NCBI GenBank assembly: GCA_964487045.1
Contig: CAZAOT010000001.1
Location: 215,863 to 279,862 of the forward strand
Length of the DNA: 64,000 nt
Source: an uncultured Candidatus Saccharibacteria bacterium
Lineage (GTDB): Bacteria; Patescibacteriota; UBA1384; DTJR01
Direction: 5' to 3'
Part shown: piece by piece, positions 7,188 to 53,466 of the stretch
Numbering within the stretch: position 1 is the first letter of the stretch
Layout: the number at the start of each line of letters is the position of its first letter
Made by a program: the position numbers and the translations under genes
Notes under the pieces: generated by a model
Databases searched by the model: none
The model's input: only the letters and a program-made list of their open reading frames with translations
What the model was told of the DNA's origin: nothing

Positions 7188-7326
7188 TAGCTAAATTTTA
7201 CATCTTTACGCAGGGGTCCGCAACTATTTACATATAAATTGAGAATATTATAATGGCACTTAACCGCAAGGATCAGCGGCATATAAGATTGGTCCAATGT
7301 CTGGCCGCAAGGCCAAAAGCAGGTGA

Positions 7327-8118: not shown

Positions 8119-8172
8119 TTCTGTTTGTAGAGTTGCCCACGGGTTGCCTGATTCTTAGGCAACCCTTCTTCT

Positions 8173-16072: not shown

Positions 16073-16306
16073 ATGTCAAACTTCAAGCCTACTTAGTCAC
16101 CCTTGTCCTTCCGTAGGTCGCACTGCTCATAGAGGATATAATCCCTTGATCAGTAAGACCGAAGGAGGAAGACCTAATTTACAGGGTTAATATTATCAGC
16201 TTTTTATTAAATATAAAGAGTTTACGAAAGAAAACAGCCCCGGACGCGTCATCCTGGTAGAACCAGTCTGACGGCCGGGGCCGTTGGTGGCTAGTTGCCT
16301 AGCCAA

Positions 16307-16732
16307 CTACTCCCAGGAGAGCCAGGGGGCGGCAGAGGTGTCGGCAACCTTCATCAGGATTGCCAACGCGGTAGATGCGACGGGCCCCGGGAAGGCAACC
16401 GTTCCGCCTTCCTTGCGAATACCGACCTTGAGGCCAACAGCCTCAGCGGCGGCGCAGATGAAGCCGTGGCCGCGCGAGAAGATGTTGGCGGCGCCATCGA
16501 GCGCCAGTTCATGGCCATGGATGAGCACGTTGTCGCCATCCTGAAACATGTACACGAAGGTCGCGTTGGACTTGTCCTTGGCGACCTCCATCACGAACAT
16601 CTCGGCCTCGATCTCTCGGCTCTCCTCGTCAACTTCGCCTTGCTCATTCAGCGATACGACAGTCAGAGGCAGTGACCTTCTCATCTGAAACTCCAACCGC
16701 TTTAGGGGCGCGGCAACCCCATGGCTTGTCAA
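16307..16732 (-). CDS. GC-rich island B, gene 2: hypothetical protein of 125-141 aa
   Basis: GC-rich ORF. An internal Met at 16684 has the better SD (GGAG). Upstream at about 16800-16830 is a TTGACT-17-TATAGT promoter. Downstream (minus strand) is the gccccgg/ccggggc hairpin followed by a T-run. Confidence 0.5.
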   Translation of the reverse strand: MTSHGVAAPLKRLEFQMRRSLPLTVVSLNEQGEVDEESREIEAEMFVMEVAKDKSNATFVYMFQDGDNVLIHGHELALDGAANIFSRGHGFICAAAEAVGLKVGIRKEGGTVAFPGPVASTALAILMKVADTSAAPWLSWE

Positions 16733-16985
16733 ACTTCATGCAAGGGAGTACTAAGCTTCCTCCTCAAGCAAACATAAGACTATACCACAAAACAGCCTAA
16801 AAGTCAAGCCAAGTGAGTATTCTCACCTGGGTAACCCCTCACTCTAGACACGAAGTGAACGTGAACGAATTGTTCGAGTGAACTTTCGAGTTAGAGGGAG
16901 TGGTCAAGATTAGGGCTGTTTATAAAGAGGAAGGCCCCCTGTCGAATGACGGGGGGCCTGGTGGTTGCGAACAGAATCAGCGGGG

Positions 16986-17777
16986 CTATACCTTGGGAAA
17001 GATGGAGGCGCAGTCGCGCCCGGTGAACATGTTTTCGGGCGTGATCTGGACAGAGCGCCCGATGGCGTCGAGGTTGGGAGAGCATGCCAGAAGAACTTCG
17101 CGTAGATTCCACATGTTCATCCAGATATCCTTGAGCGCCTCAATGGCGCCGTCGGTTCCCTTCAGGAATAGTCCGTTCGGTGGGCCCTTGATGGGCCATT
17201 CCTTCAAGTGCTCCGATCCGGTCAGCCAACGCTCAAGCGCCAGAACCTCCTGAGGGAAGACGACTTTTTGCCCGGTGTTGTTCTGGCACTGGAGCCTGAC
17301 CTCATCAATGATGCTAGGGTCACTGGCCGAGGCCCGACCCTTGAAAGTAACGCGCACATTCTTGGCGGTGGTGTCGCGGACTCGTTGCCACTCGCAGTAC
17401 CAGTCGGCGAAGTCTTCCTTGATTGAGAGCTTGCAGACATAGGCTGATTGGAGCGTACTCCTTCGATCTCGGGAGTGATTGGACATGATCGGGTCGGGTG
17501 TGTGCTCGATGGACAAGCGTGGACCGAAGAGATGGCATCTCGTCAGGCCTCTGGCGAGGTTGACACAACGAGTGTTGCCAATGTAGTGAAGGAACCTAGT
17601 TCCTTGAGCTTCCGGACTCTGTAGTCGGATATCCATCTCGTCGCCGGAGGCGTTGGCCTGAATGTAGGCTGCGGCGCCTCCCTTGAAGCCTGGCACGATC
17701 TCGATGTCTCCTTGTAACGGTTTGAGCGCTTCGATGTCCGGAAGGCTGAACAGCTCGGGGGTCGGCGGCTGCACCAT
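16986..17777 (-). CDS. GC-rich island B, gene 1: hypothetical protein of 263 aa
   Basis: GC-rich ORF. AAGGAG lies 5 nt upstream of the ATG. No family was recognised. Confidence 0.5.
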   Translation of the reverse strand: MVQPPTPELFSLPDIEALKPLQGDIEIVPGFKGGAAAYIQANASGDEMDIRLQSPEAQGTRFLHYIGNTRCVNLARGLTRCHLFGPRLSIEHTPDPIMSNHSRDRRSTLQSAYVCKLSIKEDFADWYCEWQRVRDTTAKNVRVTFKGRASASDPSIIDEVRLQCQNNTGQKVVFPQEVLALERWLTGSEHLKEWPIKGPPNGLFLKGTDGAIEALKDIWMNMWNLREVLLACSPNLDAIGRSVQITPENMFTGRDCASIFPKV

Positions 17778-17880
17778 CTTGACTCCTTCTTGGCGGCTTA
17801 CCAGTAGGCCATGCCCGAACGGGTTGGGGAAGCGTCAACTATTGGTCCTGAGAAAACGGACATATGTTTATTCGCTGATC

Positions 17881-17926
17881 CTATCCGCCAAAGATCAAGT
17901 ATTCTCCTGATCACTGGCGGATAAGT
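17881..17926. promoter_or_regulatory. imperfect 17-bp inverted repeat (cTATCCGCCAaaGATCA...TGATCActGGCGGATAag), a candidate operator upstream of island B gene 1
   Basis: The palindrome was read directly. It lies about 100-150 bp upstream of the 17777 start and is adjacent to and overlaps a TTGACA. Confidence 0.45.
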
Positions 17927-18034
17927 ATGTCAAAGAACATTCAAAAGCACTCCTTGTAAAATCTTCACCAATACAATAACCTTATTTGTTAATATTTACA
18001 AAATTTCTCTCTTGATATATAATTGCTCCAGTTA

Positions 18035-22300: not shown

Positions 22301-22334
22301 TTTTTCTTTTCTGATGCAGGGGGTAAGAGAACCT

Positions 22335-22680
22335 ACTTGCGAAGCGGTTCTCCTACCCCCTGCACCCCCCTCTTTGCTCGCCCAAAAGACGATTTTGCTT
22401 TCTGAGACACTCCGAAAATCGCTTCGCTAGAATCGGCCTCTCGAAGCGCAAAATCGACTTTTGATAAAGGAGGGTTGGTCTTTTTGTTCGGGCAATATGC
22501 GATTGCCCGAACAGCAGGTAAAGCGAAAATTTTCTTGTTTCAATGAGTAGGCCCGCAAACTTGTCGGGTAGAGGCTCATTAGAAAAAGAAAATTTGAGCA
22601 GTCCTTGAAGCGTGTAAGGGTGAGGAAAGTTTTGAAAACCTAGGGAATTTGCCCGCAACAAATTCCTGGGTTTTCAAAAT
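22335..22680 (-). repeat. copy 5 (inverted orientation, diverged) of the recurrent structured element
   Basis: The reverse complement matches the shared blocks ccctaggttttcaa..tttcctcaccct and carries the terminal hairpin ttttgaaaacctaggg..cccgcaa..ccctgggttttcaaaa. Confidence 0.5.
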
Positions 22681-22780
22681 TATATAAAAATTATTATAAG
22701 ATTTTTCCATTTTTTTCTAATTTATAAAATTTATAGTGAGTCTATGAGGCTTAGGTCCTTTGCTGTAGGAGGAAGCTACC

Positions 22781-25100: not shown

Positions 25101-25730
25101 ATGAAAAAAATTGGTTGGTCTAATAAAATGGCATATGCGGTCGGTCTTTTAGCTACCGACGGTCATCTTTCAATTGATAAACGACATATAGATCTAACTT
25201 CAAAGGATGTCGAACAGCTGAAAAATTTTATGCAGGCGATTGGGAGACAATATATCATAGCTAAAAAATCTTCTGGTTATACGGGTGAGCTTTGTAGCCG
25301 AATTCAATTTAGTGACGTATCGCTGTATCGGTGGTTGCTGAGTATCGGCTTCAAGCAGAAAAAGACTGATGAGATGAGCGATTTAAAGATCCCTCAAAAG
25401 TATTTCTTTGATTTTCTTAGAGGACATTTCGATGGTGACGGGTCTATATACTCATACTTTGATCCTCGCTGGAAAAGTAGTTTTATGTATTACATAACAT
25501 TTATAGCTAAGAACAGAGATCATATTGTTTGGTTACAAAAAATGATTGAAAAATTAAGTGGCGTAAAAGGAAGGATTGGATTGGGAAAGCGTGTATATCA
25601 AGTAAGATTCGCCAAGAAAGAGAGCAAGGTTCTTATCAATAAGATGTACAAAAGAACTGACGCCCTTTATTTAACTAGAAAATATGATAAAATCTTAAAG
25701 ATCCTTGAAATTGATGCGGATGTGCTGTAA
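25101..25730 (+). CDS. LAGLIDADG homing endonuclease (two-motif)
   Basis: Motifs LLATDGHL and FDGDGSIY. The last 15 nt and stop codon overlap the 5' end of tRNA-Leu(GAG). Confidence 0.8.
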   Translation: MKKIGWSNKMAYAVGLLATDGHLSIDKRHIDLTSKDVEQLKNFMQAIGRQYIIAKKSSGYTGELCSRIQFSDVSLYRWLLSIGFKQKKTDEMSDLKIPQKYFFDFLRGHFDGDGSIYSYFDPRWKSSFMYYITFIAKNRDHIVWLQKMIEKLSGVKGRIGLGKRVYQVRFAKKESKVLINKMYKRTDALYLTRKYDKILKILEIDADVL

Positions 25731-28289: not shown

Positions 28290-28299
28290 TTAATTTTTT

Positions 28300-28632
28300 T
28301 GCGAGCAGTAGCTCGCGCTTATGTGAAAACCGGGGGGACACTCTTGATTGTGAAACATCCACTTTTTGAGTACCACCTCAAAAAGCCCTAGGTTTTCAAC
28401 GCTTTCCTCACCCTCGCAATGCCCTTGGTGAAGCTATCTTTGTTGAAACTTCCGGAATTTATTCAGTTTACGTTCAGACTTACGTCTTCATATTCAACTG
28501 ATATGCAGTTCCAACTTTCAACTTCAGAGAGCATCTATTAATTCATAGGCTCGAAGCTCGCTTTTTCGCCTATGAATTGGAGGGATTTATTAATGCCACA
28601 GAATTGACAAAACAGCACTTTTGTGCTATATT
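28300..28632 (+). repeat. copy 1 of the recurrent structured element, with a TTGACA-17-TATATT promoter at its 3' end
   Basis: Shares conserved blocks with the copies at 52555, 37131(-), 42381(-) and 22335(-). It carries two expanded hairpin inserts. Confidence 0.7.
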
Positions 28633-28736
28633 GTCAGGTTCGTAAATTGAAATTTACTTAGAGGTAGGTTCCTGGAGCTTTATCCAGAAATCCTGCTTCT
28701 AAGCAGGTATTCTCCAGCCGCTTAGTCGGCTGGGAG

Positions 28737-29261
28737 GTGATTGATTTGTCGAAGCAAGAACGGACAACCGGACTCGTTGTTGTAGCAGCGGTCGTAGGGA
28801 TCTGGATCCTTAGCCGCATCGTCGGCGATGGCTTCGGCGAGACGTTCTGCGAGATCTTGGCCGTGAGCGCCGGCGCCCTGGTCTGTACCATACTGGCATC
28901 TGCGCTGCTGACGAAGCCGGATGGGAAGATGCCGGAGGAGAGTGCTATCATCGGGCTCTTCATGATCTTCTTTGTCCTGCTGGCTATCCCGCACTTCAGT
29001 GTCTCGGCCAAGCTTGCGTCGAGCAAGTGGCAGATGAAGATCGCGGTGGCCCACGACTATGACAAAGCAGGGATCAAAGAGGCGCTCACCCAGCGTGACG
29101 AGACGCTCCGGCGCTCGAGTGCTTACATGATCGGTGACGGCTGGAAGTATGACCGTCACACCCACTACTTCAACCGGGGCTGGAACCTGTATCTCTGGGT
29201 TCCGTTCTCCGGATACCGGCGCAAGCCGGTCACGACCAACGGCCTGGGGACTAGTCCCTAG
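28737..29261 (+). CDS. GC-rich cassette F: hypothetical integral membrane protein (3-4 TM)
   Basis: GC-rich ORF with a structured ~100-nt leader and a GGGAGG SD. The start could be the GTG at 28737 or the TTG at 28746. Confidence 0.5.
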   Translation: MIDLSKQERTTGLVVVAAVVGIWILSRIVGDGFGETFCEILAVSAGALVCTILASALLTKPDGKMPEESAIIGLFMIFFVLLAIPHFSVSAKLASSKWQMKIAVAHDYDKAGIKEALTQRDETLRRSSAYMIGDGWKYDRHTHYFNRGWNLYLWVPFSGYRRKPVTTNGLGTSP

Positions 29262-29317
29262 GCCGTTTTTGATTGAAAAAAATCAAATTATAAGGTATAA
29301 TTTCGATGTTTGATGAT

Positions 29318-29394
29318 GGGCGACTAGCTCAGTTGGTTAGAGCGACTCGTTTACACCGAGTAGGTCAGGGGTTCGAATCCCTTGTCGCCCACCA
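29318..29394 (+). tRNA. tRNA-Val (TAC)
   Basis: Acceptor GGGCGAC/GTCGCCC, anticodon loop TTTACAC, T-loop TTCGAAT, CCA. Confidence 0.85.
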
Positions 29395-29426: not shown

Positions 29427-30101
29427 ATGACATACCCCATTAGTTTAAAAAATAAAGCGTTTGAGTTTAGATTGAGAGGATTAAGTTACAACACGATTTC
29501 TACTCGTCTAAAGGTGCCCAAAAGTACCTTGTGCTCATGGCTCAAAGAAAATCTAGATTCAGCAAAAATAAAAGAACAGAACATTGAAAAAACGAGAAAA
29601 ATTTGGTCTACAAATATCTCATCATTTAATTCTGCTAGAGCGAAGCGTTACAAAACTGAAGTTGCATCTGAAATCAGAGCAAATTCAAAGACTTTGCCTA
29701 AACTCAATTCTGATAATCTTTTCTGGATCGGGATAGGACTTTTTATGGCAGAAGGTAGTAAAAAAGAGAAATGGTCGATTAAATTTACAAACTCTGATCC
29801 TTTGATAATTAGATTAATAATGAGATTTTTTAGAGAAATTTGCAACGTTCCCGAGGATAAATTTAGGCCGTTGGTTTTTATACATAATAATTGTGATGAA
29901 GCCGAATCATTGAAATATTGGTCAGGAATTGCTAAAGTTCCAGAAGAGCAGTTCTGGAAGTCACAGATCATACGATCAAAGAGTAGCTTGGGCCGGAGAC
30001 CGGTCGATAGGTTGCCTTATGGAACTTTGCGGATCGCTATTCCTGACACAAGATTGAATAGAAAAATTTATGGTTGGATGCTTGGCTTGAGCAAATATTA
30101 A
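29427..30101 (+). CDS. homing-endonuclease-like protein (single LAGLIDADG-like motif IGIGLFMAEGS)
   Basis: It lies 33 bp after tRNA-Val and 0 bp before tRNA-Phe. Confidence 0.55.
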   Translation: MTYPISLKNKAFEFRLRGLSYNTISTRLKVPKSTLCSWLKENLDSAKIKEQNIEKTRKIWSTNISSFNSARAKRYKTEVASEIRANSKTLPKLNSDNLFWIGIGLFMAEGSKKEKWSIKFTNSDPLIIRLIMRFFREICNVPEDKFRPLVFIHNNCDEAESLKYWSGIAKVPEEQFWKSQIIRSKSSLGRRPVDRLPYGTLRIAIPDTRLNRKIYGWMLGLSKY

Positions 30102-30176
30102 GCCGAGGTAGCTCAGTGGTAGAGCACCGGTCTGAAAAACCGGGTGTCGGCAGTCCGATCCTGCCCCTCGGCACCA
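30102..30176 (+). tRNA. tRNA-Phe (GAA)
   Basis: Acceptor GCCGAGG/CCTCGGC, anticodon loop CTGAAAA, CCA. The T-loop is atypical (TCCGATC). Confidence 0.75.
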
Positions 30177-31908: not shown

Positions 31909-31937
31909 TTGACAAAACGGCTTAGATAAGCTATAAT
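31909..31937 (+). promoter_or_regulatory. consensus sigma70 promoter (TTGACA-17-TATAAT) for cassette G, followed by a 15-bp perfect leader hairpin (31950-31987)
   Basis: Read directly from the sequence. Confidence 0.6.
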
Positions 31938-32034
31938 CTAGTATTTCATAAACGCACGGCTCTGGAGTAATTCAGAGCCGTGCGTTTATAAGAAACCACC
32001 TGCTCTTTGAGAGTTAGGTTAAGGAGGAACGGCC

Positions 32035-33717
32035 GTGGGCAAGCTGTGGCTGGCTCTTGTATTGCTTGTTGTTGTCTCGATGTCGTTTGCTGCTCAAGAC
32101 TTCGCAGTCGAGTGGCATGTCCACTCGAGCACCTTCTCGGACGGTACTCGCACCCCGCTACAACTCGTGCTCGATTCGCTTTGCCAAGTGGTGGTCTTCT
32201 CAGATCACCTCGACGGCATAGCAGCAAAGGGGGCGAAGCTCTACCTCGACACCATCAGAAGGTTGTCGGGTACAGCTGGGACGCTGGCTATTCCTGCGGT
32301 CGAAGTGACTTGTGGTAAACTTGAGAGCTCATATGATGTGATTGCTCTTGGCCTGAACGAAGAATCGCTTGACGAGCTGATTTCGCTTTATCAGAGAGGG
32401 GCTTTCAACTACTCCGAGCAAGGGCTACCTGCCCTTAAGGCGGTTGCAAACCGCTACAACTTGATCCTCATCGCTGCCCATCCGGACAGTAAGGACACCC
32501 TGCTTGGCAAGGGCATCCCTTTCCATCTCAACGAGAACGCCAAGTATGTCGACGGGTTTGAGATGTTCGATTCGAACCACATCGGTTTTGACGCGGACAA
32601 ATTTCCCGAAAACTGCCTGCCGTTCTACAGGCACTTTGACCGGCTAACGCTCACAGCTGGCAGCGACTTTCATTTCCTGATTCACGGCTCATTGCCAACC
32701 GAGTCTTGGCGTGAAGCGCCAATGACCCGGGTCATCCTCGACGACGACGCCTCGCTCACCGAAGAGTCGATCACTGACTCAATCCGGCGTGGCCGAACTT
32801 ACGTCTCGAGTCTGCGCAGCGCTCGGCTAGTCGAAGCGAGTGCGATGCCCGGCGGAGTGTGGAAGCTCGCCGAGCCGCTCTATATGGCTTGCCGAGGAGT
32901 AGAGGAAGGCGATTTTCTCTACGACAAGGTCAATGTGATTGCGGTCACCGGGAAGACGTGGCACAAGCGGAGCTTTCAACCTCGCTTTGATGGTGACAAG
33001 TTGGTGCTGAAGATCTCGGCTGATCAGTTTCCCCCTGGCATCAAGAGTCTGAACGTAGACTTCTGCGGGCGGATCCTCACCTCGACGATTCTCACCGCGC
33101 CGGCGCCAACTGCTCCGGTGCAGTCATCGCCTGTCGCTTCCGCACCCTCGCCGGTCCAGCCGACCCCTCAACCCGCACCTCAGCCTGCCGCCACATCCTC
33201 ACCAAACGCTAATGTCGATCCGAAGTACGGCATCAATCTTGCGGCGTATAAGTACCGCTTCCGCGGTACACAGGGGAATGTCTTTGGCAACACGAACGAG
33301 TATCTGGTCGTCTTTAATGACGACCTCAAGGGTAAAGTCTGGCATCAATTCGTGGCAGAATTTCCGCCGATTGTTCTCGACGTACAGCTCGAGATGAAAA
33401 GCGACGGCCACGCCCAATGTGTAGAGCTGTTCGACTTTGAACAGACCGCGAACGCCTGGCTTCCCAACCGTGCCCGGGATCCTCGCAAGACCGACCCATA
33501 CCTTGATGAACTGAGGTGTTGGAGTGAAGGTGACTGGGATCTGATCCCCAAAGGGAAGGCGCGTTTGAGAGTCAGCATTGATCCCAAGAGCCTCATGGCG
33601 TCGCACTGCGACACGTCGGGGCTTGCCTATACGATCAAGTCGATCCCTGCCTGGGCCTACGCGTTCAATCGGGGGTTTAACTACTACTATGACCAGGTTT
33701 TCCTAAAGCGTTTCTAG
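32035..33717 (+). CDS. GC-rich cassette G: secreted PHP-domain phosphoesterase with a Pro/Ala-rich linker and a C-terminal domain
   Basis: GTG start with AAGGAGG 7 nt upstream, then a signal peptide. PHP motifs HVHSSTFSDG, AAHP and SDFH are present. A strong terminator lies at 33745-33781. Confidence 0.6.
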   Translation: MGKLWLALVLLVVVSMSFAAQDFAVEWHVHSSTFSDGTRTPLQLVLDSLCQVVVFSDHLDGIAAKGAKLYLDTIRRLSGTAGTLAIPAVEVTCGKLESSYDVIALGLNEESLDELISLYQRGAFNYSEQGLPALKAVANRYNLILIAAHPDSKDTLLGKGIPFHLNENAKYVDGFEMFDSNHIGFDADKFPENCLPFYRHFDRLTLTAGSDFHFLIHGSLPTESWREAPMTRVILDDDASLTEESITDSIRRGRTYVSSLRSARLVEASAMPGGVWKLAEPLYMACRGVEEGDFLYDKVNVIAVTGKTWHKRSFQPRFDGDKLVLKISADQFPPGIKSLNVDFCGRILTSTILTAPAPTAPVQSSPVASAPSPVQPTPQPAPQPAATSSPNANVDPKYGINLAAYKYRFRGTQGNVFGNTNEYLVVFNDDLKGKVWHQFVAEFPPIVLDVQLEMKSDGHAQCVELFDFEQTANAWLPNRARDPRKTDPYLDELRCWSEGDWDLIPKGKARLRVSIDPKSLMASHCDTSGLAYTIKSIPAWAYAFNRGFNYYYDQVFLKRF

Positions 33718-33744
33718 CGCGTAGGGAGATCGAGGTTTGTTTTC

Positions 33745-33781
33745 ACGCCCAGCCGGGTTGTTTCCTGGCTGGGCGTTTTTC
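33745..33781 (+). terminator. intrinsic terminator (acgcccagccgg...ctggctgggcgt + TTTTT)
   Basis: Read directly from the sequence. Confidence 0.7.
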
Positions 33782-35382: not shown

Positions 35383-35470
35383 GGCGCGGTGTCGTAATCG
35401 GTAGCCGAGGCAGACTTAAAATCTGTTGGTCCTAAAGACCGTGTGGGTTCGAGTCCCACCCGCGCCACCA
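35383..35470 (+). tRNA. tRNA-Leu (TAA), type II
   Basis: Acceptor GGCGCGG/CCGCGCC, anticodon loop CTTAAAA, long variable arm, T-loop TTCGAGT, CCA. Confidence 0.8.
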
Positions 35471-35482
35471 TAGGGAGGATTT

Positions 35483-36175
35483 TTGCAAAAGTTGATCGAT
35501 ACAGAATTCTTCAAGAAATGGACGCATGATAGTGCTTATCTAATCGGCTATATATGTGCTGATGGTTGTGTACATAAGCGATCCAACAGGAATAATAGCT
35601 ATATTCTAACGATCACATCAAAAGATAAAGATCATTTGCACAAAATCAACACCATATTGTCATCTAATTATGCTATTTCAAAAAAAATCGGCGGTAGTGG
35701 ATCGATTTCCTACAATCTAAGTATTTCAAACACTGAGCTTTGCCTTGATCTAATAAATCTAGGGATAACTCCTCGTAAGACTTTCACCATAAGTAAAGTA
35801 GACGTTCCGGACTCTTTATTCTGCGATTTTTTGCGAGGTTATTTTGACGCAGATGGATCGATCTACATCTATAAGGTTAATAATACTTGGCAACTCAAGC
35901 TAGCTTTGGTTTCAGCTAGCAAGAACTTTTTGGAATTATTAGAGAGGGAAATATCTTTCAGACTTCAACTAGAGAGAAAAAATATTTATACGTTTCAGGG
36001 CAAGGGCAAGAACAATCCATTGCACTCGCTAGTTTTTTATATAAATGATGGGCAAAAATTCTTAAAATTTATTTACAAAAATAGTCCCCATATTTTTTTA
36101 GAAAGAAAGTACGAAGTCTTTAATAAATGGAAGACCATCAAAAGACGTAGCTATATATTAACAACTCAAAGTTGA
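35483..36175 (+). CDS. LAGLIDADG homing endonuclease (two-motif)
   Basis: Motifs YICADGCV and FDADGSIY. TTG start with AGGGAGG 7 nt upstream. It lies 12 bp downstream of tRNA-Leu(TAA). Confidence 0.75.
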   Translation: MQKLIDTEFFKKWTHDSAYLIGYICADGCVHKRSNRNNSYILTITSKDKDHLHKINTILSSNYAISKKIGGSGSISYNLSISNTELCLDLINLGITPRKTFTISKVDVPDSLFCDFLRGYFDADGSIYIYKVNNTWQLKLALVSASKNFLELLEREISFRLQLERKNIYTFQGKGKNNPLHSLVFYINDGQKFLKFIYKNSPHIFLERKYEVFNKWKTIKRRSYILTTQS

Positions 36176-37130: not shown

Positions 37131-37400
37131 CAATTTTATTTATAAAAGTCAAAGATATTATATTCAAATAGTCGAAGAAGCGAGCTTGGAAGCGATAATA
37201 AATAAATGCTCTCCGAAGTTGAAAGCTGGAACTGATTATCTTGGCAAACTTGTCCAAGAATGAATTCCAGAAGGTTCAACAAGGAGAGCTTCATCAAGGG
37301 CGTTGCGAGGGTCAGGAATTCGTTAAAAACCTAGGGAACACACCGAAAGTGTGCCCTGGGTTGTTAACATTAACTGCGAGCCGAAGGCTCGCAAAGTAAT
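37131..37400 (-). repeat. copy 3 of the recurrent structured element, upstream of the native trmH-like gene
   Basis: Its reverse complement is about 85% identical to copy 2 (52555-52770) and shows compensatory stem changes. Confidence 0.7.
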
Positions 37401-37442
37401 AATCTATTGTTAAATGAATTTTTTTTAGTTAAAATCTAACTA

Positions 37443-38141
37443 ATGAGGAAAAAACTTCAATCATATCTAGCAGTAGTGCTTGCTATAGGCATTTTTGGGT
37501 TCGGAGTATATAAATATTTTCCGACCATTTTTGCTGATGACATTTATCCTCTTGAATACACTGAAGAAATCAATAAATGTGCTGATCTTTTCGGTCTAGA
37601 TAAGCCTCTGCTTGCTGCCTTAATTCTTAAAGAGTCTGGTTTTAATGCTCAAGCTGTATCTCGTGCGGGCGCGATGGGACTGACTCAGCTGATGCCTGCT
37701 ACAGCAAGAGGGCTTAACAATCGAGTTTTTGAAGGAAGATATACAGATTATTTTGATCCAGAATCTAATATTTGTATGGGCGCAGCGCACTTAGCTGGAC
37801 TTCTTGGCACCTATGATGGGGACGTAACTGCGGCGCTTATTGCATATAATGGTGGCGACGGCGCGGCTAGACGTTACTTGGCCGCTCGAGACACTTCAGT
37901 TTTAGTGACTGAAACCAGGCTTTATTCTCCTAAAATCTTGGCTGCTAGGGAAGTCTACGCTTCGATGTATGCCGATAGATTCACTCCGTCTAAGAGTGAA
38001 TTCAAGCTACCAGATCCGACGACCGGTAAAATTTATGCCCCGCAACTAGTCAACCTAAACGTACCAAGGCCCGAAGATAAAACCAAGGAATTCTGGAAAG
38101 GATTTTTGAAGGATGCCTTTGCAAGATTTGTCAAGAAATAG
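37443..38141 (+). CDS. lytic transglycosylase (SLT domain), membrane-anchored
   Basis: SLT motifs ES.FN..A.S.AGA.GLMQ and AYNGG. Confidence 0.75.
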   Translation: MRKKLQSYLAVVLAIGIFGFGVYKYFPTIFADDIYPLEYTEEINKCADLFGLDKPLLAALILKESGFNAQAVSRAGAMGLTQLMPATARGLNNRVFEGRYTDYFDPESNICMGAAHLAGLLGTYDGDVTAALIAYNGGDGAARRYLAARDTSVLVTETRLYSPKILAAREVYASMYADRFTPSKSEFKLPDPTTGKIYAPQLVNLNVPRPEDKTKEFWKGFLKDAFARFVKK

Positions 38142-39926: not shown

Positions 39927-40544
39927 TCAATAGAGCAAAGTACTCGTACTGGTACGAAAACCAATACTCCACTCAAGGTCGGAATAGATCTTTGCTTCGA
40001 TTGAGCCGAAGCGCTGACATATACCAACCTGGAAGTCAAAGTCGTCTAGGTTCGAAACGTCCAGGAAGCCCCGAGCGATAAAGTCGGTGCTTGATGTGAG
40101 TTTGGCGATGCGCCATTTCGGCAGAGAAAGGAAACCGGTCGGGTGCGAGTTGGGTAGCGCGATCGGATAGAGGAGCCGCAAATCGATATTTCTATCGAGG
40201 TACTGCAGCCCTGCGTAGAACTCCTCTTTCTGGATTGGGTCGTATCCCATTTCCTTGTCTCGATCGGATTCCCAGATTCCCGGTACGATATCGAGCATAA
40301 AGCGGTACGACGAGCGCCAGTCTTTAGGGATTGGCCAGGAAAACCTGACGTTCTTGGTCAGTGAGGTTGACGATTCGTAGTCGATTTCGAAGAGGAATAT
40401 CTGATCGTAGAAGTATCCTTTGACCAGACCGTCGCTCCACTCGGCCCCGACTTCGAAGGGTCGGTTGTCAATATCCTGCGCCCAAAGCGGCGTCAGGCAG
40501 AGCACGGCTACCGCAAGAGCGGCTAAACGTGTCACGCATGACAC
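39927..40544 (-). CDS. GC-rich cassette I: secreted hypothetical protein with a signal peptide and a C-terminal aromatic residue
   Basis: AAGGAGG SD. A terminator ctgcccgcc-gata-ggcgggcag + T-run lies on the minus strand. Confidence 0.5.
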   Translation of the reverse strand: MSCVTRLAALAVAVLCLTPLWAQDIDNRPFEVGAEWSDGLVKGYFYDQIFLFEIDYESSTSLTKNVRFSWPIPKDWRSSYRFMLDIVPGIWESDRDKEMGYDPIQKEEFYAGLQYLDRNIDLRLLYPIALPNSHPTGFLSLPKWRIAKLTSSTDFIARGFLDVSNLDDFDFQVGICQRFGSIEAKIYSDLEWSIGFRTSTSTLLY

Positions 40545-40655
40545 CTCCTTAGGTTGGCTTACTAGCTACACTATAGCACTATTTAGCCCGTTAGAAATTG
40601 CCGACGCCTTGTATGCGCCGATATTGTGTATTTATATCTTAGTCGGCATCGATTT

Positions 40656-41483: not shown

Positions 41484-41583
41484 TTGAGCAAAATATTACT
41501 AAAAATAAGGTTCAATGTAAACAAAACGGGCCACCCAAGCTATGCAAGGGTGGCCCGTAGAGGGTCCTGGTAGGTGGCTCTAC

Positions 41584-42246
41584 CTAGACCGGGTTGCCAT
41601 TGGCGTCAGCACCGGCGCCATCTGTGTTGACCGAGTAGTCGTTCTTCGTCTCGGTCGTGGTCGTGCGGGTGCCGGCGTTCGAGGCGTTGTCGGCCACGTT
41701 GGCCGTGCCACCCATGCTGCCTTCGGCGGCGGACGAGGTGGTGCCTCCCTCGGCCGAAACCGTCGGGGAAGCAGTGGCGCTCACGCCACTCACGAGCGGC
41801 CCGCTCCACAGCCCATTGGGCAGGGAGAGGGTCAGGTTGATCGTGGGCACAGTCGGCGGCTGACTGCGGAGAGCGTTCAGCTCTCGCCGCATCAGCACCA
41901 GCGCGATCAGGCCCGCGATAAGGCCAAGGGCCAGTCCGATGAGGACTGCCATGACCCAGGAGTTGTCCCGCCAAATCTGCTCCGCCGCCGCGACGGCCAT
42001 CGCCCAAGCCTCCGCGCGAGTCGCGTTGGCGTTGGGGCGGAGCGTACCGTCGGGGTACCCGTTCAGGTTCCCCTGACCGGTGCCCTTGTTCCATGTGGGC
42101 TGGGCCCAGGCGGGCGCGGTCTCACCGGTGTTGAGGTTCGTGAAGTTGATCGGTCCAGAGGAAGGGATCCACGGCCGATCAGTCTGAGCGAACGCGACGG
42201 ACGACAGGAGAACGACAGTGATCACGGCAATGATGGTGCGGGACAT
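41584..42246 (-). CDS. GC-rich cassette J: secreted protein with an S-layer-homology (SLH) domain, then a TM helix and a Ser/Thr/Gly-rich tail
   Basis: SLH signature GYPDGTLRPNANATRAE. The promoter TTGACA-17-TATACT (42381-42409, minus strand) is near-identical to the cassette F promoter. Terminator gggccaccc...gggtggccc at 41529-41557. Confidence 0.55.
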   Translation of the reverse strand: MSRTIIAVITVVLLSSVAFAQTDRPWIPSSGPINFTNLNTGETAPAWAQPTWNKGTGQGNLNGYPDGTLRPNANATRAEAWAMAVAAAEQIWRDNSWVMAVLIGLALGLIAGLIALVLMRRELNALRSQPPTVPTINLTLSLPNGLWSGPLVSGVSATASPTVSAEGGTTSSAAEGSMGGTANVADNASNAGTRTTTTETKNDYSVNTDGAGADANGNPV

Positions 42247-42380
42247 GAGTTGCCTCCCGGCAAGTGTAGTTGCCGCCTCTATACCGAGGTCGGCGTGTAT
42301 CTTTACCCCAGAGCCACCTGGGGATTAAGAACTAATTGTCAAATGCCACATTGATGAGCTTCTCACCAACGTAACGAAGC

Positions 42381-42650
42381 AGTATAGCACAAAATAGCTG
42401 TTTTGTCAATCCTGGAGCTAATTAATCGCCGAAGGCACCGCTTCCAAAAGATGATTTTTCGCTTCTTGCGCGAGTAGTGCCGCAAATCTGTCGGCTCGAG
42501 TGCTCCCGGGAAAGAAAAATCATACTTTTGAGCGTGTTGCGCTTTTTGAGTGGAGCAAAAAGCTAATCCATCAAACCTAGGAACTTGCCCGCAACAAGTT
42601 CTTGGGGTTTCGACATTAACTGCGAGCTTTTAGCTCGCAAAATTTCTTTC
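42381..42650 (-). repeat. copy 4 (partial) of the recurrent structured element, carrying the cassette J promoter
   Basis: Shares the terminal hairpins tgcgagc-N5-gctcgca and aaacctagg..cccgcaa..ccttggggttt, plus the promoter block. Confidence 0.55.
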
Positions 42651-42686
42651 TTTTTACTCTTTCATAAAAGTGCTAAAATAAAACAA

Positions 42687-43943
42687 ATGGGCATATTCGA
42701 TATTTTTAAGGGTTCAGAGGACTACTCTAATTACGCTATCTCGCTAGATATCGGAACTGAGTTTGTAAAAACGCTTATTTTTAAGGTTGAAGGTGATCAG
42801 GCTCATGTGCTTGGCATAGGCAAGCAGCGCCAAAGGTTAGCTGATATTCAGGGCGGAGTTGTCACCGATATTTATGGAGTAATTCGAAACTGCGAAACTG
42901 CGCTTGATCAGGCTGCTACTCAGGCTAAAATTCTGCCCCAACAGGTTATTATCGGTATTGCCGGAGAATTGGTCAAAGGTATTACGACCGATGTGAAATA
43001 CACCAGACCAGATCAAAACAAAAAAATCTCGATGGACGAGCTGACCGAGATCGTCAATCGCATCCAAAAACAAACCTATGACCGCGCTAGAAAAATTCTT
43101 GCTTATGAAACAGGTCATCGAGAAGTTAATGTAAAACTGGTTAATTCGGCGGTCGTGGATGTAAAAATCGACGGATATCACATTACCAATCCGCTTGGTT
43201 TTCAGGGAAAAGAGATCGAGGTTAGCGTCTTTAACGCCTTTGCGCCAAATGTTCACTTGGGAGCGCTTCAAACGGTCGCCGAGAGTTTGGATCTAGACTT
43301 GCTTTCGATCGCTGCCGAGCCATTTGCGGTTGCAAGATGTATGGGCTCAGATCAGGAAAGCGAATTTTCAGCTATTTTCATTGATATTGGAGGCGGTACG
43401 ACTGACATCGCTGTCGTTTCCAAGGGTGGATTGGTTGGAACAAAAATGTTTGCCTTGGGAGGTCGCGCCTTTACCAAGAGAATTGCCCAAGTTTTAAATG
43501 AACCATTTTTAGAAGCAGAACAGGATAAATTAGACTATACTGCCGGCAAATTGGCCAAGGAAAAGCTGGATATTGTCGAAAAAGCAGTCAAGCAGGATTC
43601 GGATGTATGGCTAGCTGGCGTGCAACTCACACTCGAAGAGTTTTCGGATTTAGAGTTACTTCCAAGTAAGATTTTGCTTTGTGGAGGAGGCTCTAATTTG
43701 CCAGATATAGAGAGGGTTTTGCTTGACGCAAAATGGGGGCGAAATGTCGCATTTGCCAAGAAGCCAAGTGTAGGATTTTTAAAACCAAAGAATGTCTCAG
43801 CGGTTGTCGATGATACGGGTGAGCTTAAGACCATCTCTGATGTTACACCGATGGCACTCGCAAATTTAGCCATTGATATGGTTGGCAAAGAAAAAGTAGT
43901 GGACGGATTATTCTCGAAGATTATAATGACTTTGAGGAGTTAA
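42687..43943 (+). CDS. ftsA: cell division protein FtsA-like (actin fold)
   Basis: Motifs DIGTEFVK..., IFIDIGGGTTDIAV and LCGGGS. The start is at MGIFDIF. Confidence 0.7.
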   Translation: MGIFDIFKGSEDYSNYAISLDIGTEFVKTLIFKVEGDQAHVLGIGKQRQRLADIQGGVVTDIYGVIRNCETALDQAATQAKILPQQVIIGIAGELVKGITTDVKYTRPDQNKKISMDELTEIVNRIQKQTYDRARKILAYETGHREVNVKLVNSAVVDVKIDGYHITNPLGFQGKEIEVSVFNAFAPNVHLGALQTVAESLDLDLLSIAAEPFAVARCMGSDQESEFSAIFIDIGGGTTDIAVVSKGGLVGTKMFALGGRAFTKRIAQVLNEPFLEAEQDKLDYTAGKLAKEKLDIVEKAVKQDSDVWLAGVQLTLEEFSDLELLPSKILLCGGGSNLPDIERVLLDAKWGRNVAFAKKPSVGFLKPKNVSAVVDDTGELKTISDVTPMALANLAIDMVGKEKVVDGLFSKIIMTLRS

Positions 43944-45782
43944 ATGGACGAGATTTTATATTTAGAACCAGATGAGGAAATAACTTCCGTAGTCGATAAG
44001 CTTAAGGGGCTCGAGGGGGACTCGGTTGGCTTAGTGGCGCCGAAGGGTTCTTCGATCGTCCAATCTTTAGTTAGTTTGAAATTACTTCAAAAACAAGCCG
44101 AGTCGCTCGGTAAGGAAATTGCCATTGTTACTTCTGATGAAGTAGGCCAGAATTTGGCCGGACGAATTAACCTGCCGGTATATGCCGACGTAAGAAGTCG
44201 TAAGCCGATTGAGCCAAAAGAGCAGAAAGAACCAGAAGAAACGGGTCCAATCGAAATTACAGACGAACCAGCTACGGCAACCGCAGCCGAGATAGCTCGC
44301 GAAAAAGTTGAAACTCCAAAAGAAAGACCAGAAAAAGAACTTCCAGAGGAATATAAAGATTTACCGAAAAATTTTGAAATTAGTCGTTATGATCAAGCTA
44401 AAGATACTGAAGCACCCGAAGAGGTTGCGCCTGTGGCCGCCGAGGATGATGATCCTAAGGAGAGCGAGCAAGAAGTAGAAACTAGCGAGGAAGACAATAT
44501 GCCAAGTGAGCGCTCGGAAGAAAAATCAAATACTAATTTTGTAAACAGACCTCTTCGTGAGAGAGCCGAAGACAATAGGGCTGATCTTGAGAGTGCTAGA
44601 CCAATGATCCATGAGAAAAGGCAGGTCCCAAGTGTTAGTAAGAAAAAATCTCCAAAGAAAGCAATTATCGCAACTGTCATAACTATCTTGGTTTTGGGCG
44701 GACTTTTGTTCGCTGATCTAGCCTTGGCCAAGCTTGATATTAACTTGACGATTCCGGCTGAAGAAATTTCCAAAGATGTAATGATTTCAGTGGAGAAGGA
44801 TCATCCAGCACTCGACTTAGAAAATGGGATTATTGGGGGAACTCAAGTAGATAAAGACGTTTTGAGCGAAGGAAATTATAATTCAACAGGTGAAAAAGAA
44901 ACTGGAGATAAAGCCAAGGGTACTCTTGTCGCAAAGAACGATGCGGGAGTAGATGAGGCAATTGCCGGTGGCACTACTGTAAGGAGTTCTGGCGGAGTTG
45001 AGTTTACTACTGATAAGGACGTTGTCGTGCCAAAAGCGAGCCTAAACTCTAATGGCGATAAAGTTCTAGGACAAGCGAGTTTGGCTGTAACTGCTAAAGA
45101 GGCGGGGGCAAAAGGAAACCTGCCTTCATCAACTTCCTATGTGATTTCTTCTAAGACAAAAATTTCGATTTCGGGAGAAACTACTGGCGGAACGACCAAG
45201 AAAATTAAAATTGTAGCAAAGGCGGATGTTGATGCAGCTAAGAAAGATCTTCAGGAAAAGGCAATTACAAAATTCAAGGAAGAGTTGAAGACTGATAAAA
45301 AAACCTTGTTCTTAGATGATGCAGTCAAGGCTGACCTTAGTGAATTTACGACAAGCAAAAATATTAGTGATGAAGCCGAAAGTTTCAAAGCAAATGCAAA
45401 AGTGAAGATTTCGACTATTACATTTTTGACTGATGACTTTAATCAGGCTGTACAGAAAACCGCCGAAAAGGGGTTGCCGGAAGGTAAGAGTTTGCTTGTT
45501 ACCGAATCTGACTCTGTCACCCCGGCTTTAGAAGAAAATCAGATAAATGTCGGCAAGCTTAAGGTAAAGGGTGAGCTTAGAAGTCATATCGGCCCTAAGA
45601 TCGATCTTGACCAAATTGTCGCTTCCTTCAGACTTAAACCAATCAAAAATATCAAAGCCGAACTTCAGAAGATAGAGGGGGCGACTGTTAATGACGTCAA
45701 GATTTCACCAAGCTTTGCCCTTCCAATTGGACCATTATTCAAGAGCAGCACTCGCCTAAAAATTGAATATACCAAGAAGTAA
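43944..45782 (+). CDS. bitopic hypothetical membrane protein: ~225-aa cytoplasmic Glu/Lys-rich N-domain, one TM helix, ~360-aa extracellular domain
   Basis: Translationally coupled to ftsA (TAAATG). No family was recognised. Confidence 0.5.
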   Translation: MDEILYLEPDEEITSVVDKLKGLEGDSVGLVAPKGSSIVQSLVSLKLLQKQAESLGKEIAIVTSDEVGQNLAGRINLPVYADVRSRKPIEPKEQKEPEETGPIEITDEPATATAAEIAREKVETPKERPEKELPEEYKDLPKNFEISRYDQAKDTEAPEEVAPVAAEDDDPKESEQEVETSEEDNMPSERSEEKSNTNFVNRPLRERAEDNRADLESARPMIHEKRQVPSVSKKKSPKKAIIATVITILVLGGLLFADLALAKLDINLTIPAEEISKDVMISVEKDHPALDLENGIIGGTQVDKDVLSEGNYNSTGEKETGDKAKGTLVAKNDAGVDEAIAGGTTVRSSGGVEFTTDKDVVVPKASLNSNGDKVLGQASLAVTAKEAGAKGNLPSSTSYVISSKTKISISGETTGGTTKKIKIVAKADVDAAKKDLQEKAITKFKEELKTDKKTLFLDDAVKADLSEFTTSKNISDEAESFKANAKVKISTITFLTDDFNQAVQKTAEKGLPEGKSLLVTESDSVTPALEENQINVGKLKVKGELRSHIGPKIDLDQIVASFRLKPIKNIKAELQKIEGATVNDVKISPSFALPIGPLFKSSTRLKIEYTKK

Positions 45783-52488: not shown

Positions 52489-52554
52489 TTTAGATTAAAA
52501 AGATTCTAAGAAAAAAGACCCGCGAGGGTCTTTTTTCGTTTTGGGAGCTAAAGA

Positions 52555-52819
52555 TCGTATGTAATGTTAACAACCCAGGGGACACTTTCGGTGCGTCCCC
52601 TAGGTTTTTAACGATTTCCTCACCCTCCTAACGCCCTTTGTGTAGCTCTTTTTGTTGAACCTTCTGGAATTCATCCTCGAACAAGTTTGTCGAGGTAATC
52701 AGTTCCAGCTTTCAACATCAAAGAGCATCTATTTTTTAAAGTCTCGAAGCCCGCTTCTTCGACTATAAATCGACTTTTGATACGGGAGTATTGACATTTA
52801 CCGGGGAATGTGGTAATAT
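52555..52819 (+). repeat. copy 2 of the recurrent structured element, with a TTGACA-17-TAATAT promoter at its 3' end
   Basis: About 85% identical to the reverse complement of 37131-37400. It sits directly upstream of cassette K. Confidence 0.7.
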
Positions 52820-52829
52820 ACGCAAGCTC

Positions 52830-53210
52830 ATGTATTTGAGCACATCCGACGTATACGGAGGCAAGCCCATGGGATGGGAACACGGAACGTTCGGTCGTGG
52901 GGCGTACGACGCGTTTCTCGCTGACTTGAGAAACGATAAGTACAACGACTTCACCATCGTGAAGCTCGACAATCCCAACCAGCCTGAGTACAAGCGACTC
53001 TGCCGCGGACGCGACCTCGACTGCAAGAGGTCTCTCCCGCTGCGCATGGCTCGCTTCAATTACGCAGGCCGCCGCGACAACTGGTACGTCGTGGAGGAAG
53101 TTCTCGCGGTTGATGACAGGGATTGCGATGGCGCGTCCATCGTATCTCTGATTGTCTACCCCGAAGGCTGCCGCCCTGCAGTCAGCCCACCACTGATGCT
53201 GGAGGCCTGA
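52830..53210 (+). CDS. GC-rich cassette K: ~126-aa hypothetical protein, probably translated from a near-leaderless mRNA
   Basis: The ATG lies about 10 nt after the -10 box. A terminator (ggacc...ggtcc + TTTTT) lies at about 53365-53400. Confidence 0.45.
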   Translation: MYLSTSDVYGGKPMGWEHGTFGRGAYDAFLADLRNDKYNDFTIVKLDNPNQPEYKRLCRGRDLDCKRSLPLRMARFNYAGRRDNWYVVEEVLAVDDRDCDGASIVSLIVYPEGCRPAVSPPLMLEA

Positions 53211-53466
53211 CCACACGAGTCCTGAGCGGACTGTAAAATGCTCCGTCTCCGGCAGACGTTAAATGCTGGACTTCCCCGGAAACGGGGGTTCTAGGCATGG
53301 CTTGCCATGTCTACCACACCTGATCGTTTTGCTGTTTATTTGGGCGGCTAGTTCCGTCCACTATATGCGGGACCTGCGGCGATATTGCTGACGGGTCCTT
53401 TTTGTTATTACTTGATTGTAAAATACCCATTTTGAGATATAATCAAACCAGTAAAAAAGGAATTTT

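Follow-up and report, generated by a model that had tools for sequence, protein, structure and literature searches.

A modular palindromic element between genes of a Candidatus Saccharibacteria bacterium, possibly a lineage-specific interspersed repeat

A structured element recurs in a stretch of 64,000 nucleotides (called the window) from an uncultured Candidatus Saccharibacteria bacterium (GenBank assembly GCA_964487045.1, contig CAZAOT010000001.1, positions 215,863 to 279,862 of the forward strand). The explanation that we prefer, and hold with modest confidence, is an interspersed repeat of the BOX/BIME/NIME kind that is palindromic and modular, has no coding function and is restricted to one lineage. 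In the manner of such repeats it is present in several intergenic copies in both orientations, consists of separable modules and is found in a narrow lineage. None of the DNA that the copies occupy is translated; a copy either comes right after a stop codon or has divergent promoters on its two sides. In the window two copies are on the plus strand and three on the minus strand, i.e., about one copy of 200-300 nt per 13 kb.

Proteobacteria, streptococci, neisseriae and rickettsiae are well known to harbour interspersed palindromic repeats. The streamlined genomes in the Candidate Phyla Radiation (CPR, Patescibacteria) are assumed to hold little DNA of this type, and a search of the literature did not find such repeats described in CPR/Patescibacteria. 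One copy per about 13 kb is noteworthy in a streamlined genome and it also has a practical cost, namely that assemblies break inside the element.

Copies, modules and relatives

The original prediction had listed five copies of the element in the window, and all five are found at about the proposed positions. Each copy contains the nonamer CCTAGGTTT once, and these five are its only occurrences in the window, as compared with 0.49 expected. The analysis covered about 11 distinct copies. Besides copies 1-5 of the window, copies occur in L023, L024, L027, L028, L030 (two, L030a and L030b) and L035, where the L numbers denote loci from other assemblies. Throughout this text forward means the strand that was used in the original prediction, and the modules are read 5' to 3' on that strand.

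The modules follow each other in a fixed order: a first hairpin (HP1), a linker, a second hairpin (HP2), a C-rich spacer, a long rod and an optional 3' hairpin. HP1 consists of a T-run and a GC-rich hairpin of 6-9 bp with a loop of 3-5 nt; the linker between HP1 and HP2 is AT-rich and often contains TAATGT. HP2 (AAACCCAGG..CCTAGGTTT) has the form GAAAACC-C-AGGG..loop..CCCT-A-GGTTTTC, in which the position beside CCTAGG is usually mismatched. The spacer is C-rich and unpaired (TTTCCTCACCCT; in its fuller form TTTCCTNACCCT plus about 15 nt). The rod is a long imperfect hairpin with an apex that is usually GACAAGTTTG, and its subtypes A, B and C are interchangeable. The extra 3' hairpin, with CGACTAT after it, is seen in copies 1-3 only. 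Type B is the commonest rod. Its 3' end, CTTTTG, is paired with a CAAAAG at the 5' base, which indicates that the element ends exactly at the foot of the rod. Rod B alone has inverted ends of 16-17 nt (CAAAAGnATGATTTT / AAAATCATCTTTTG); the whole element is without terminal inverted repeats.

A hidden Markov model (HMM) was built from copies 1-3 and searched with nhmmer. The E values in the following list refer to this model unless another one is named; scores in bits are from a covariance model (CM) of the rod.

Copy 1: 28298-28577, plus strand, 10 nt past the stop codon of glmS; E 4e-72; HP1 28300-28317, expanded HP2 28325-28400, spacer, expanded rod 28433-28532, 3' hairpin 28541-28577
Copy 2 (the focal copy): 52543-52766, plus strand; E 1e-90; decayed HP1 52543-52557, HP2 52566-52612, C-rich spacer 52613-52644, rod 52645-52726 with apical AACAAGTTTG, T-rich stretch 52727-52737, 3' hairpin 52738-52766
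Copy 3: 37168-37396, minus strand, between the divergent SLT and SpoU/TrmH genes; E 1e-84; HP1 37394-37374, HP2 37368-37322, spacer 37321-37290, rod 37289-37208, 3' part to 37168; an orthologous copy lies beside SLT in L035
Copy 4: 42445-42642, minus strand, between ftsA and cassette F; 5' module E 2e-3, type-B HMM E 5e-51, rod CM 107 bits; HP1 42639-42621, HP2 42611-42572, small hairpin 42563-42541, type-B rod 42530-42445 (CAAAAGTATGATTTTTC...GAAAAATCATCTTTTG)
Copy 5: 22380-22675, minus strand, without HP1, its 3' side facing the end of a convergent gene; E 4e-5, rod CM 59.9 and 54.1 bits; HP2 22675-22634, spacer, type-A rod 22598-22524, hairpin 22512-22486, type-B rod 22465-22380

Copies 1-3 are full-length homologues. 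Copy 2 (52555-52766, plus) and copy 3 (37168-37379, minus) form an inverted repeat of 212 nt with 85% identity, the value that had been predicted for this pair, and copies 1 and 2 share an ungapped block of 77 nt with 84% identity. The two hairpin expansions ascribed to copy 1 are those of HP2 and the rod. The further claim that blocks of sequence are shared by all five copies holds over the full length for copies 1-3, but for copies 4 and 5 it holds over the first 70-100 nt only. The latter two have in common with copies 1-3 just the 5' hairpin module and the overall architecture; their rods belong to other subtypes.

The mosaic nature of the element is evident from exchanges of whole modules. 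HP1 is decayed in copy 2 and absent from copy 5, which carries two rods; the two L030 copies agree in having an unrelated hairpin (GGGGTAGGAAG..CCTCCTACCCC) in place of HP2. Several genomes contain rods of type A and several contain type B, and the rods of copies 1-3 represent a third type. The search with a covariance model that had been suggested succeeded in part: a model of the rod alone (R1) finds the rods of copies 4 and 5, but it misses copies 1-3 and reveals no copies beyond those already known. The 5' module is more alike among copies of one genome than between orthologous sites of different genomes. This within-genome likeness, together with the swapping of modules, points to intragenomic spread or gene conversion.

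Two further observations concern the modules. A very stable hairpin of 25 bp (GGGGGGTGCAGGGGGTAGGAGAACC...GGTTCTCTTACCCCCTGCATC; window 22318-22372, minus strand) adjoins copy 5 and is similar in sequence to the hairpin that replaces HP2 in both L030 copies; judged from this similarity, hairpin modules seem to be common to repeat variants of different genomes. A resemblance of the HP1-HP2 linker to a XerCD/dif-like site (TTAATGTTAAC as compared with the XerD arm TTATGTTAAAT) was seen by eye only and was set aside.

Relatives of the element were found in metagenomes and in syntenic loci. A metagenome scan returned 12 loci, four of which were confirmed by nhmmer, namely L024 and L028 from landfill-type samples and L023 and L027 from lake samples; all four resemble copies 4 and 5. 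The syntenic loci were taken from relatives at 73-77% amino acid identity. L030 has two copies in 14 kb, one at the ftsA / AP-endonuclease site of copy 4 and the other after yceG, and L035 has a copy like copy 3 at the same site beside SLT. Other relatives lack the element at such sites: SLT and SpoU are 3 nt apart in L033 with no element between them, and L036 has no element upstream of ftsA. An adjacent protein of the window has a 63%-identical homologue that is annotated as Candidatus Berkelbacteria, a sign of a CPR host close to that group. A search of 185,579 representative genomes with a single 19-base signature (CCTAGGTTT-N6-10-TTCCTNACCCT) gave four chance-level matches and no true one; the match in Saccharibacteria lies inside an apparent ribosomal protein gene, on the opposite strand. 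Two scans of viral contigs and a blastn search against phages and plasmids also gave nothing real. Judged from these comparisons, the family is modular, lineage-restricted, and gained and lost at given sites.

The original prediction would have taken a confinement of the copies to this genome and its GC-rich cassettes as the sign of a construct artefact. The relatives in L023, L024, L027, L028, L030 and L035 speak against such confinement. Furthermore, the same native and GC-rich genes with the same junctions are present on Logan assemblies of several Sequence Read Archive (SRA) runs. An artefact is ruled out by these identical junctions in independent assemblies; the sequence is natural. The Logan contigs typically end within the element, because assemblies break inside DNA that is present in multiple copies, as is expected of a repeat.

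L033 and L034 have a different, species-specific repeat at the syntenic sites (upstream of ftsA and between SLT and SpoU) that copies 4 and 3 occupy in the window. This other repeat (L034 9700-9800 and 17800-17920; L033 9455-9560) is structured and has the form TATTGTTCGA..GAGTGGAGC.CGAA..CCTTCTCGACTC..GCTCGAAGAATAA; a C-rich motif (ACCCCACCCT) and a promoter come after it. Judged from these positions, one family of repeats seems to be replaced by another at fixed places between genes.

Structure, strand and coding potential

The prediction that the element is structured is well supported. The copies fold far better than shuffled controls, with z values of -5.7 (copy 2), -5.6 (copy 3), -4.5 (copy 1) and -9.8 (region of copy 5); the effect is weakest in copy 4 (-2.45). 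In an alignment of the six B/A-type copies 89.5% of the cells are paired. Covariation had been named as a check, and compensatory changes are indeed seen above controls: with a small sample of 6-7 mutually related sequences, 14 pairs are changed on both sides, as compared with 4.8 +/- 1.6 in shuffled alignments (reached in 0 of 500) and 0-7 in slid controls. Compensatory double changes affect 11 pairs among copies 1-3 alone, and 9 of 21 in the rods. The stem of HP1 occurs in the variants GCGAGC/GCTCGC, GGCAGC/GCTGCC, GGCAAGG/CCTTGCC and GCAAGG/CCTTGC, and the 3' arm always matches. The aligned copies show that the hairpins are maintained by compensatory change.

A functional RNA normally has a strong excess of G-U pairs on its own strand. 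In the shared helices of 10 copies we counted 18 pairs that wobble in forward orientation only (G-T) and 26 that do so in reverse orientation only (A-C). The original prediction had taken the forward orientation for granted, but the minimum free energy (MFE) of the reverse strand is the lower one in 9 of 9 copies. The lack of a forward G-U excess means that the structure is not visibly that of an RNA made from one strand. We also considered the conserved C-A mismatch in HP2 as a sign of a reverse-strand RNA, in which it would be a U-G pair. This candidate was rejected; L027 has A-A, copy 1 G-A and L035 a normal T-A pair at this position, and the wobble counts are symmetric overall.

The element does not have the properties of a gene. 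In 9 of 10 copies all frames are interrupted by stop codons, and the 10 copies do not share an open frame. The mismatches between copies 2 and 3 are distributed over the codon phases as 13/18/9 and have no periodicity of three. A protein database search with the translation of a spurious open reading frame (ORF) that runs through the element gave no candidates. By these measures the element is non-coding and represents neither a protein gene nor a pseudogene. A small peptide (MLxxVESWN) on the reverse strand of copies 1-3 was rejected, as it has no Shine-Dalgarno sequence (SD) and is absent from the other copies. The proposal of a novel gene for a non-coding RNA was not borne out either: no promoter or terminator is conserved across copies at either border, and the wobble counts given above do not favor the forward strand. 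The flanks outside the T-run/HP1 and beyond the rod are unrelated between copies.

The statement that the element does not belong to a known RNA family stands, as a search of Rfam 15 gave no match at the gathering threshold. The window and six related loci have only tRNA matches; over copy 4 there was nothing at E<=1, and over copy 2 there were only chance-level matches (E 1.2-9.4), far below gathering.

Neighbouring promoters and GC-rich cassettes

Every copy in gene-facing orientation had been predicted to end in a near-consensus promoter. Such promoters, with an extended -10 TG, do follow copy 1 (11/12 consensus positions), copy 2 (10/12) and copy 4 (11/12), but the site after copy 3 (TTGACT-17-TTTAAT) fails the promoter scan. 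Promoters of this kind are also found downstream of L027 and both L030 copies. Two of those in the window are

28604-28632, plus strand: promoter of cassette C downstream of copy 1, TTGACA-17-TATATT with TG
42381-42409, minus strand: promoter of cassette F downstream of copy 4, TTGACA-17-TATACT with TG; kept with the 5' untranslated region (UTR) in L036, where the repeat is absent

The element is located upstream of the -35 box of the downstream gene in copies 1, 2 and 4, L027, L030a and L030b, and between two divergent promoters in copies 3 and 4, L028 and L030a. The promoters of ftsA and SLT are located between HP1 and the ATG of each gene. With these positions the repeat is outside the transcripts that the promoters start, so that it cannot reside in gene leaders as had been claimed.

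L027 and L023 are 98.8% identical through the element; their sequences part at the base of the rod (...ATCATCTTTTG) or no more than about 10 nt beyond it. After the split L027 continues with a promoter and a GC-rich ORF, and L023 with the apparent terminator end of an inverted unit. The true 5'UTRs differ from cassette to cassette, and cassettes D and A have the same promoter type without a repeat. Comparison of these junctions shows that the adjacent promoter belongs to the neighbouring cassette and not to the repeat.

Some observations concern the promoters themselves. Those of cassettes C (28604-28630, plus) and F (42409-42383, minus) are identical in 25 of 27 nt, including a palindrome in the spacer, ACAAAAC...TTTTGT(G). 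The orthologous F promoter in L036 differs from this shared C/F promoter, and cassette D (31909-31937) has a related one. From its distribution, the shared promoter could be a genome-specific operator or the product of promoter gene conversion. At SLT, ftsA and SpoU/TrmH (37407-37445 plus, about 42655-42690 plus and 37150-37113 minus) a -10-like box, TAAAAT or TTTAAT, ends 7-8 nt before the ATG with no SD; TGn precedes the ftsA box. The mRNAs of these three genes look leaderless, in contrast to the GC-rich cassettes, all of which have SDs of the AGGAGG type.

The window contains at least seven of these cassettes. They are ORFan units that are rich in G and C at the third codon position (GC3 0.58-0.83, as compared with 0.32-0.42 in native genes):

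7229-8172, plus strand: GC3-rich unit
16300-17940, minus strand: GC3-rich unit
28604-29270, plus strand: GC3-rich unit (cassette C)
31909-33780, plus strand: GC3-rich unit (cassette D)
39927-40620, minus strand: GC3-rich unit
41500-42409, minus strand: GC3-rich unit (cassette F)
52791-53406, plus strand: GC3-rich unit (cassette G), neighbour of copy 2 and not part of the repeat; promoter TTGACA-17-TAATAT 52791-52819, 5'UTR, SD, GC3-rich ORF of 113 amino acids 52869-53210, structured 3'UTR, terminator ending TTTTTGTT

Cassettes C, D, F and G were read from end to end; each begins with a near-consensus promoter and a 5'UTR and also has a strong SD and a terminator. Promoter, strong SD and terminator are likewise present in the unit in L027, the flanks of which were read as well, while A, B (B1) and E have at least a promoter-like site and an SD. 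A Pfam scan of the cassette products gave no family except for a weak SLH motif. The cassettes resemble phage morons and neisserial minimal mobile elements in that they are self-contained promoter-gene-terminator units with deviant base composition between conserved genes, and in that different units are found at the same site in different genomes. They differ from morons in that they sit in a CPR chromosome and not in a prophage.

Cassette G has a homologue, G', in L043 (440-1055; 55% amino acid identity), which lies between an unrelated gene and efp. The nucleotide homology begins exactly at the -35 TTGACA and stops at the terminator TTTTTGTT, and L043 has no repeat upstream. Cassette F also keeps its promoter without the repeat: the promoter and 140-nt 5'UTR are about 90% identical in L036, where copy 4 is absent, while the ORF has 30% amino acid identity and the neighbouring core genes 73%. 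From the extent of the homology between G and G', the entity that moves appears to be the promoter-to-terminator unit itself.

Both cassettes also have a conserved untranslated part. The 3'UTR of cassette G (53211-53406, plus; about 190 nt) is better conserved relative to L043 than the ORF. It has hairpins with compensatory changes (CCCCGGAAACGGGGG vs CCCGGGTCATCCCGGGG, GGCATGGCTTGCCATGTC vs GACACGGCAACGTGTC) and no Rfam match; by its conservation it could be a structured RNA or a recombination site. The leader of cassette F (window 42409-42250, minus, aligned with L036 1577-1720), which belongs to the SLH-like gene, contains the hairpin CCCCAGGTGGCTCTGGGG and has no Rfam match. This 5'UTR is a candidate for a conserved leader RNA.

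The cassettes have a strong polarity with respect to the element. A GC-rich unit is found on the rod side in the same orientation in copies 1, 2 and 4, L027, L030a and L030b, and, probably, in inverted orientation in L023 and L028. The HP1 side is occupied by a native gene (glmS, greA, SLT, ftsA, aldolase, mreB or yceG; in copy 5 a gene that starts near 22780; the flank of L024 is not included). With about 7 cassettes per about 60 intergenic slots, adjacency in 6 of 10-11 copies has a P of about 1e-3, an estimate from small numbers.

Likeness to known systems and competing explanations

The closest parallels to the element are interspersed repeats of other bacteria. Pneumococcal BOX repeats are modular, highly structured and species-restricted, and have been judged parasitic (PMC3049150). 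Like BOX (boxA-boxB(n)-boxC, with RUP and SPRITE), the present element is non-coding, 100-300 nt long and intergenic, with a fixed module order and variable module content, extensive secondary structure, restriction to a species group with large-scale absence from relatives, and no transposase of its own; an effect on neighbouring transcripts via structure has also been proposed for BOX (PMC3049150). The two differ in that there is no sequence similarity, the modules here are separate hairpins instead of pairing A/C ends, the host is a CPR bacterium with a small genome, and an association with GC-rich cassettes is not a feature of BOX.

REP/BIME, NIME/dRS3 and Correia elements share with it the mosaic of palindromic units in intergenic DNA and hairpins that are able to influence the ends of transcripts. 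NIMEs border on regions where genes are exchanged, and Correia elements adjoin promoters. However, REP units are 20-40 nt long, are mobilised by RAYT and lie mostly within transcripts after genes, while no RAYT is present among the 20 window ORFs scanned and many of the copies here lie between divergent promoters. Correia elements have 26-bp terminal inverted repeats and a TA duplication, neither of which was found for the whole element.

The element also resembles intrinsic, bidirectional terminators. HP2 and rod B have the anatomy A4-stem-T4, and HP1 is followed by a T-rich tail; HP1 starts 10-25 nt past the stop codon of a co-directional gene in copy 1, L027 and L030b. In a simple terminator scan of the forward strand HP1 and/or HP2 were flagged in copy 3, L027, L028 and copy 5 and none in copies 1, 2 and 4; in copy 3, L027 and L028 there are 2-3 matches with 0.2-0.6 expected. 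Given this anatomy, the element most likely affects its host through transcriptional insulation or the formation of 3' ends, an effect similar to those proposed for BOX, REP and Correia elements. The hairpins would then act as intrinsic terminators that separate a housekeeping gene from the unit after it, which often has a strong promoter. The hairpins and their conserved loops may in addition be recognised by a mobilising or recombining enzyme. As a mere terminator the element would be unusual, in that it has three to four serial hairpins with conserved loops and a spacer.

Several points weigh against an interspersed repeat with an insulating effect. The U-tracts are just 4 nt long and partly paired, and 5-6 copies lie between divergent genes, where no transcript needs ending and a terminator has no obvious job. 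The spacer and the loops TTGCGAG and GACAAGTTTG are conserved, which neither a pure terminator nor selfish DNA explains, and the polarity of the cassettes, rod side in six co-oriented and probably two inverted cases out of 11 and never the HP1 side, is likewise unexplained. No target-site duplication, as a MITE would have, was seen by eye beyond T-rich runs. There is no clean pair of filled and empty sites with exact borders; L036 and L033 lack the element, but the divergence of their flanks hides where its borders would be. The 20 window ORFs scanned include no transposase, RAYT or recombinase, and a family of only about 11 distinct copies is a small sample. The conserved spacer and loops and the cassette polarity keep two rivals alive, an att-like docking site and a small RNA (sRNA).

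The first of these rivals, which we regard as rather unlikely, is a landing pad. The rod, or the whole element as folded single-stranded DNA, would be recognised by a recombinase that inserts promoter-to-terminator cassettes at its 3' edge, in the manner of a dispersed attI/attC. The polarity described above fits this scheme, as do the abrupt divergence of L027 and L023 at the foot of the rod and the different cassettes that the window and L030 hold after the element at the ftsA / AP-endonuclease site. The rod is also similar to integron attC sites. Both are imperfect palindromes whose ends are conserved and whose apex varies, with extrahelical bases and with structure kept over sequence; both are similar within a genome and adjoin ORFan cassettes of foreign composition. 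On the other hand, the window has no RYYYAAC/GTTRRRY cores, arrays or intI/attI/Pc and no integrase. The rod ends in CAAAAG/CTTTTG and HP2 in GAAAACC/GGTTTTC. Here the cassettes bring along a promoter and a terminator of their own, the copies of the element are single and dispersed, the element is 5' and not 3' of the cassette, and there is no second site at the distal cassette end. Furthermore, many cassettes are without an adjacent element (A, B, D and E in the window, G' in L043 and F' in L036), copies 3 and 5 are without a cassette, and the -35 box may be as close as 29 nt or as far as about 70 nt from the rod. The same pattern would arise if both features accumulate in permissive intergenic DNA and variation is exchanged through homologous recombination of the flanks. 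The more specific proposal that the element is the docking site of an undescribed CPR cassette-capture system, in which a recombinase recognises the folded hairpin (the rod with its conserved ends, bulged base and conserved apical loop) and adds or swaps complete GC3-rich ORFan genes, from promoter to terminator, one-sidedly, is more doubtful still. If it were true, the element would be an integrase-independent counterpart of attI/attC and would explain how ultra-small genomes sample foreign genes. More generally, if the cassette polarity reflects a mechanism, it would represent a new way in which symbiotic ultra-small bacteria acquire genes; if it does not, the element is an ordinary lineage-specific repeat family.

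We give a similarly low probability to a multi-copy (sibling) sRNA that is transcribed on the forward strand. HP2 would be the 5' hairpin, the C/U-rich spacer an anti-SD-like seed (UUUCCUCACCCU) and the rod the terminator, and the RNA might dampen the SD-dependent translation of the cassettes. The spacer is indeed conserved and C/U-rich in 8 of 11 copies, with CCUCCU in copy 2, and the AGGAGG-type SDs of the cassettes next to several native genes that look leaderless would suit such a function. A -35/-10-like pair (TTGCGA or TTGGCA, 16-18 nt, TAATGT or TATTTT) overlaps HP1 in copies 3 and 4, L024, L028 and L035. However, this spacing fails in copies 1 and 2, L027, L030a and L030b, and copy 5 has no HP1, so that the arrangement is legal in only about 5 of 10 copies. 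The terminal CUUUUG is paired with CAAAAG and no U-tract follows, the spacer is replaced in copy 4 and L030, and the strand comparisons reported above, with no forward G-U excess and the more stable reverse strand, do not favor a forward transcript.

The original prediction had offered two readings, a mobile module that bears a promoter and a novel cis-regulatory leader. In the first, repeat and promoter would form one mobile, outward-firing unit such as a Correia element or an IS-derived promoter. The near-identity of the promoters after copies 1 and 4 and the likeness of those after L030a and L030b are consistent with it. We nevertheless consider it quite improbable: the stretch from the rod to the promoter lacks conservation, cassettes D and A have a promoter of the same type without the repeat, promoters travel with cassettes G (L043) and F (L036) in the absence of the repeat, and copies 3 and 5 have no such promoter. 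The second, a riboswitch- or attenuator-like 5' leader of the downstream gene, is hardly credible even though the element is highly structured and four copies are oriented towards the 5' end of a gene downstream, because near-consensus promoters lie between element and gene in the six copies named above, the downstream genes are unrelated ORFans, copy 5, L023 and L024 face gene ends, and orthologous genes keep promoter and UTR without the element.

Some other ORFs of the window deserve mention. Three of them, 25101-25730, 29427-30101 and 35483-36175 (all plus), resemble free-standing LAGLIDADG homing endonucleases; the first and the third have a weak Pfam match to LAGLIDADG_3, and 29427-30101 was judged by eye only. 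Two of these LAGLIDADG-like ORFs adjoin tRNA genes (29318-29391, 30102-30173, 35383-35467). An ORF of 612 amino acids right after ftsA (43944-45782, plus) has a weak Baseplate_J-like match (E 1e-5). Its position is kept in relatives with ORFs of 608-623 amino acids, for which no Pfam match is on record.

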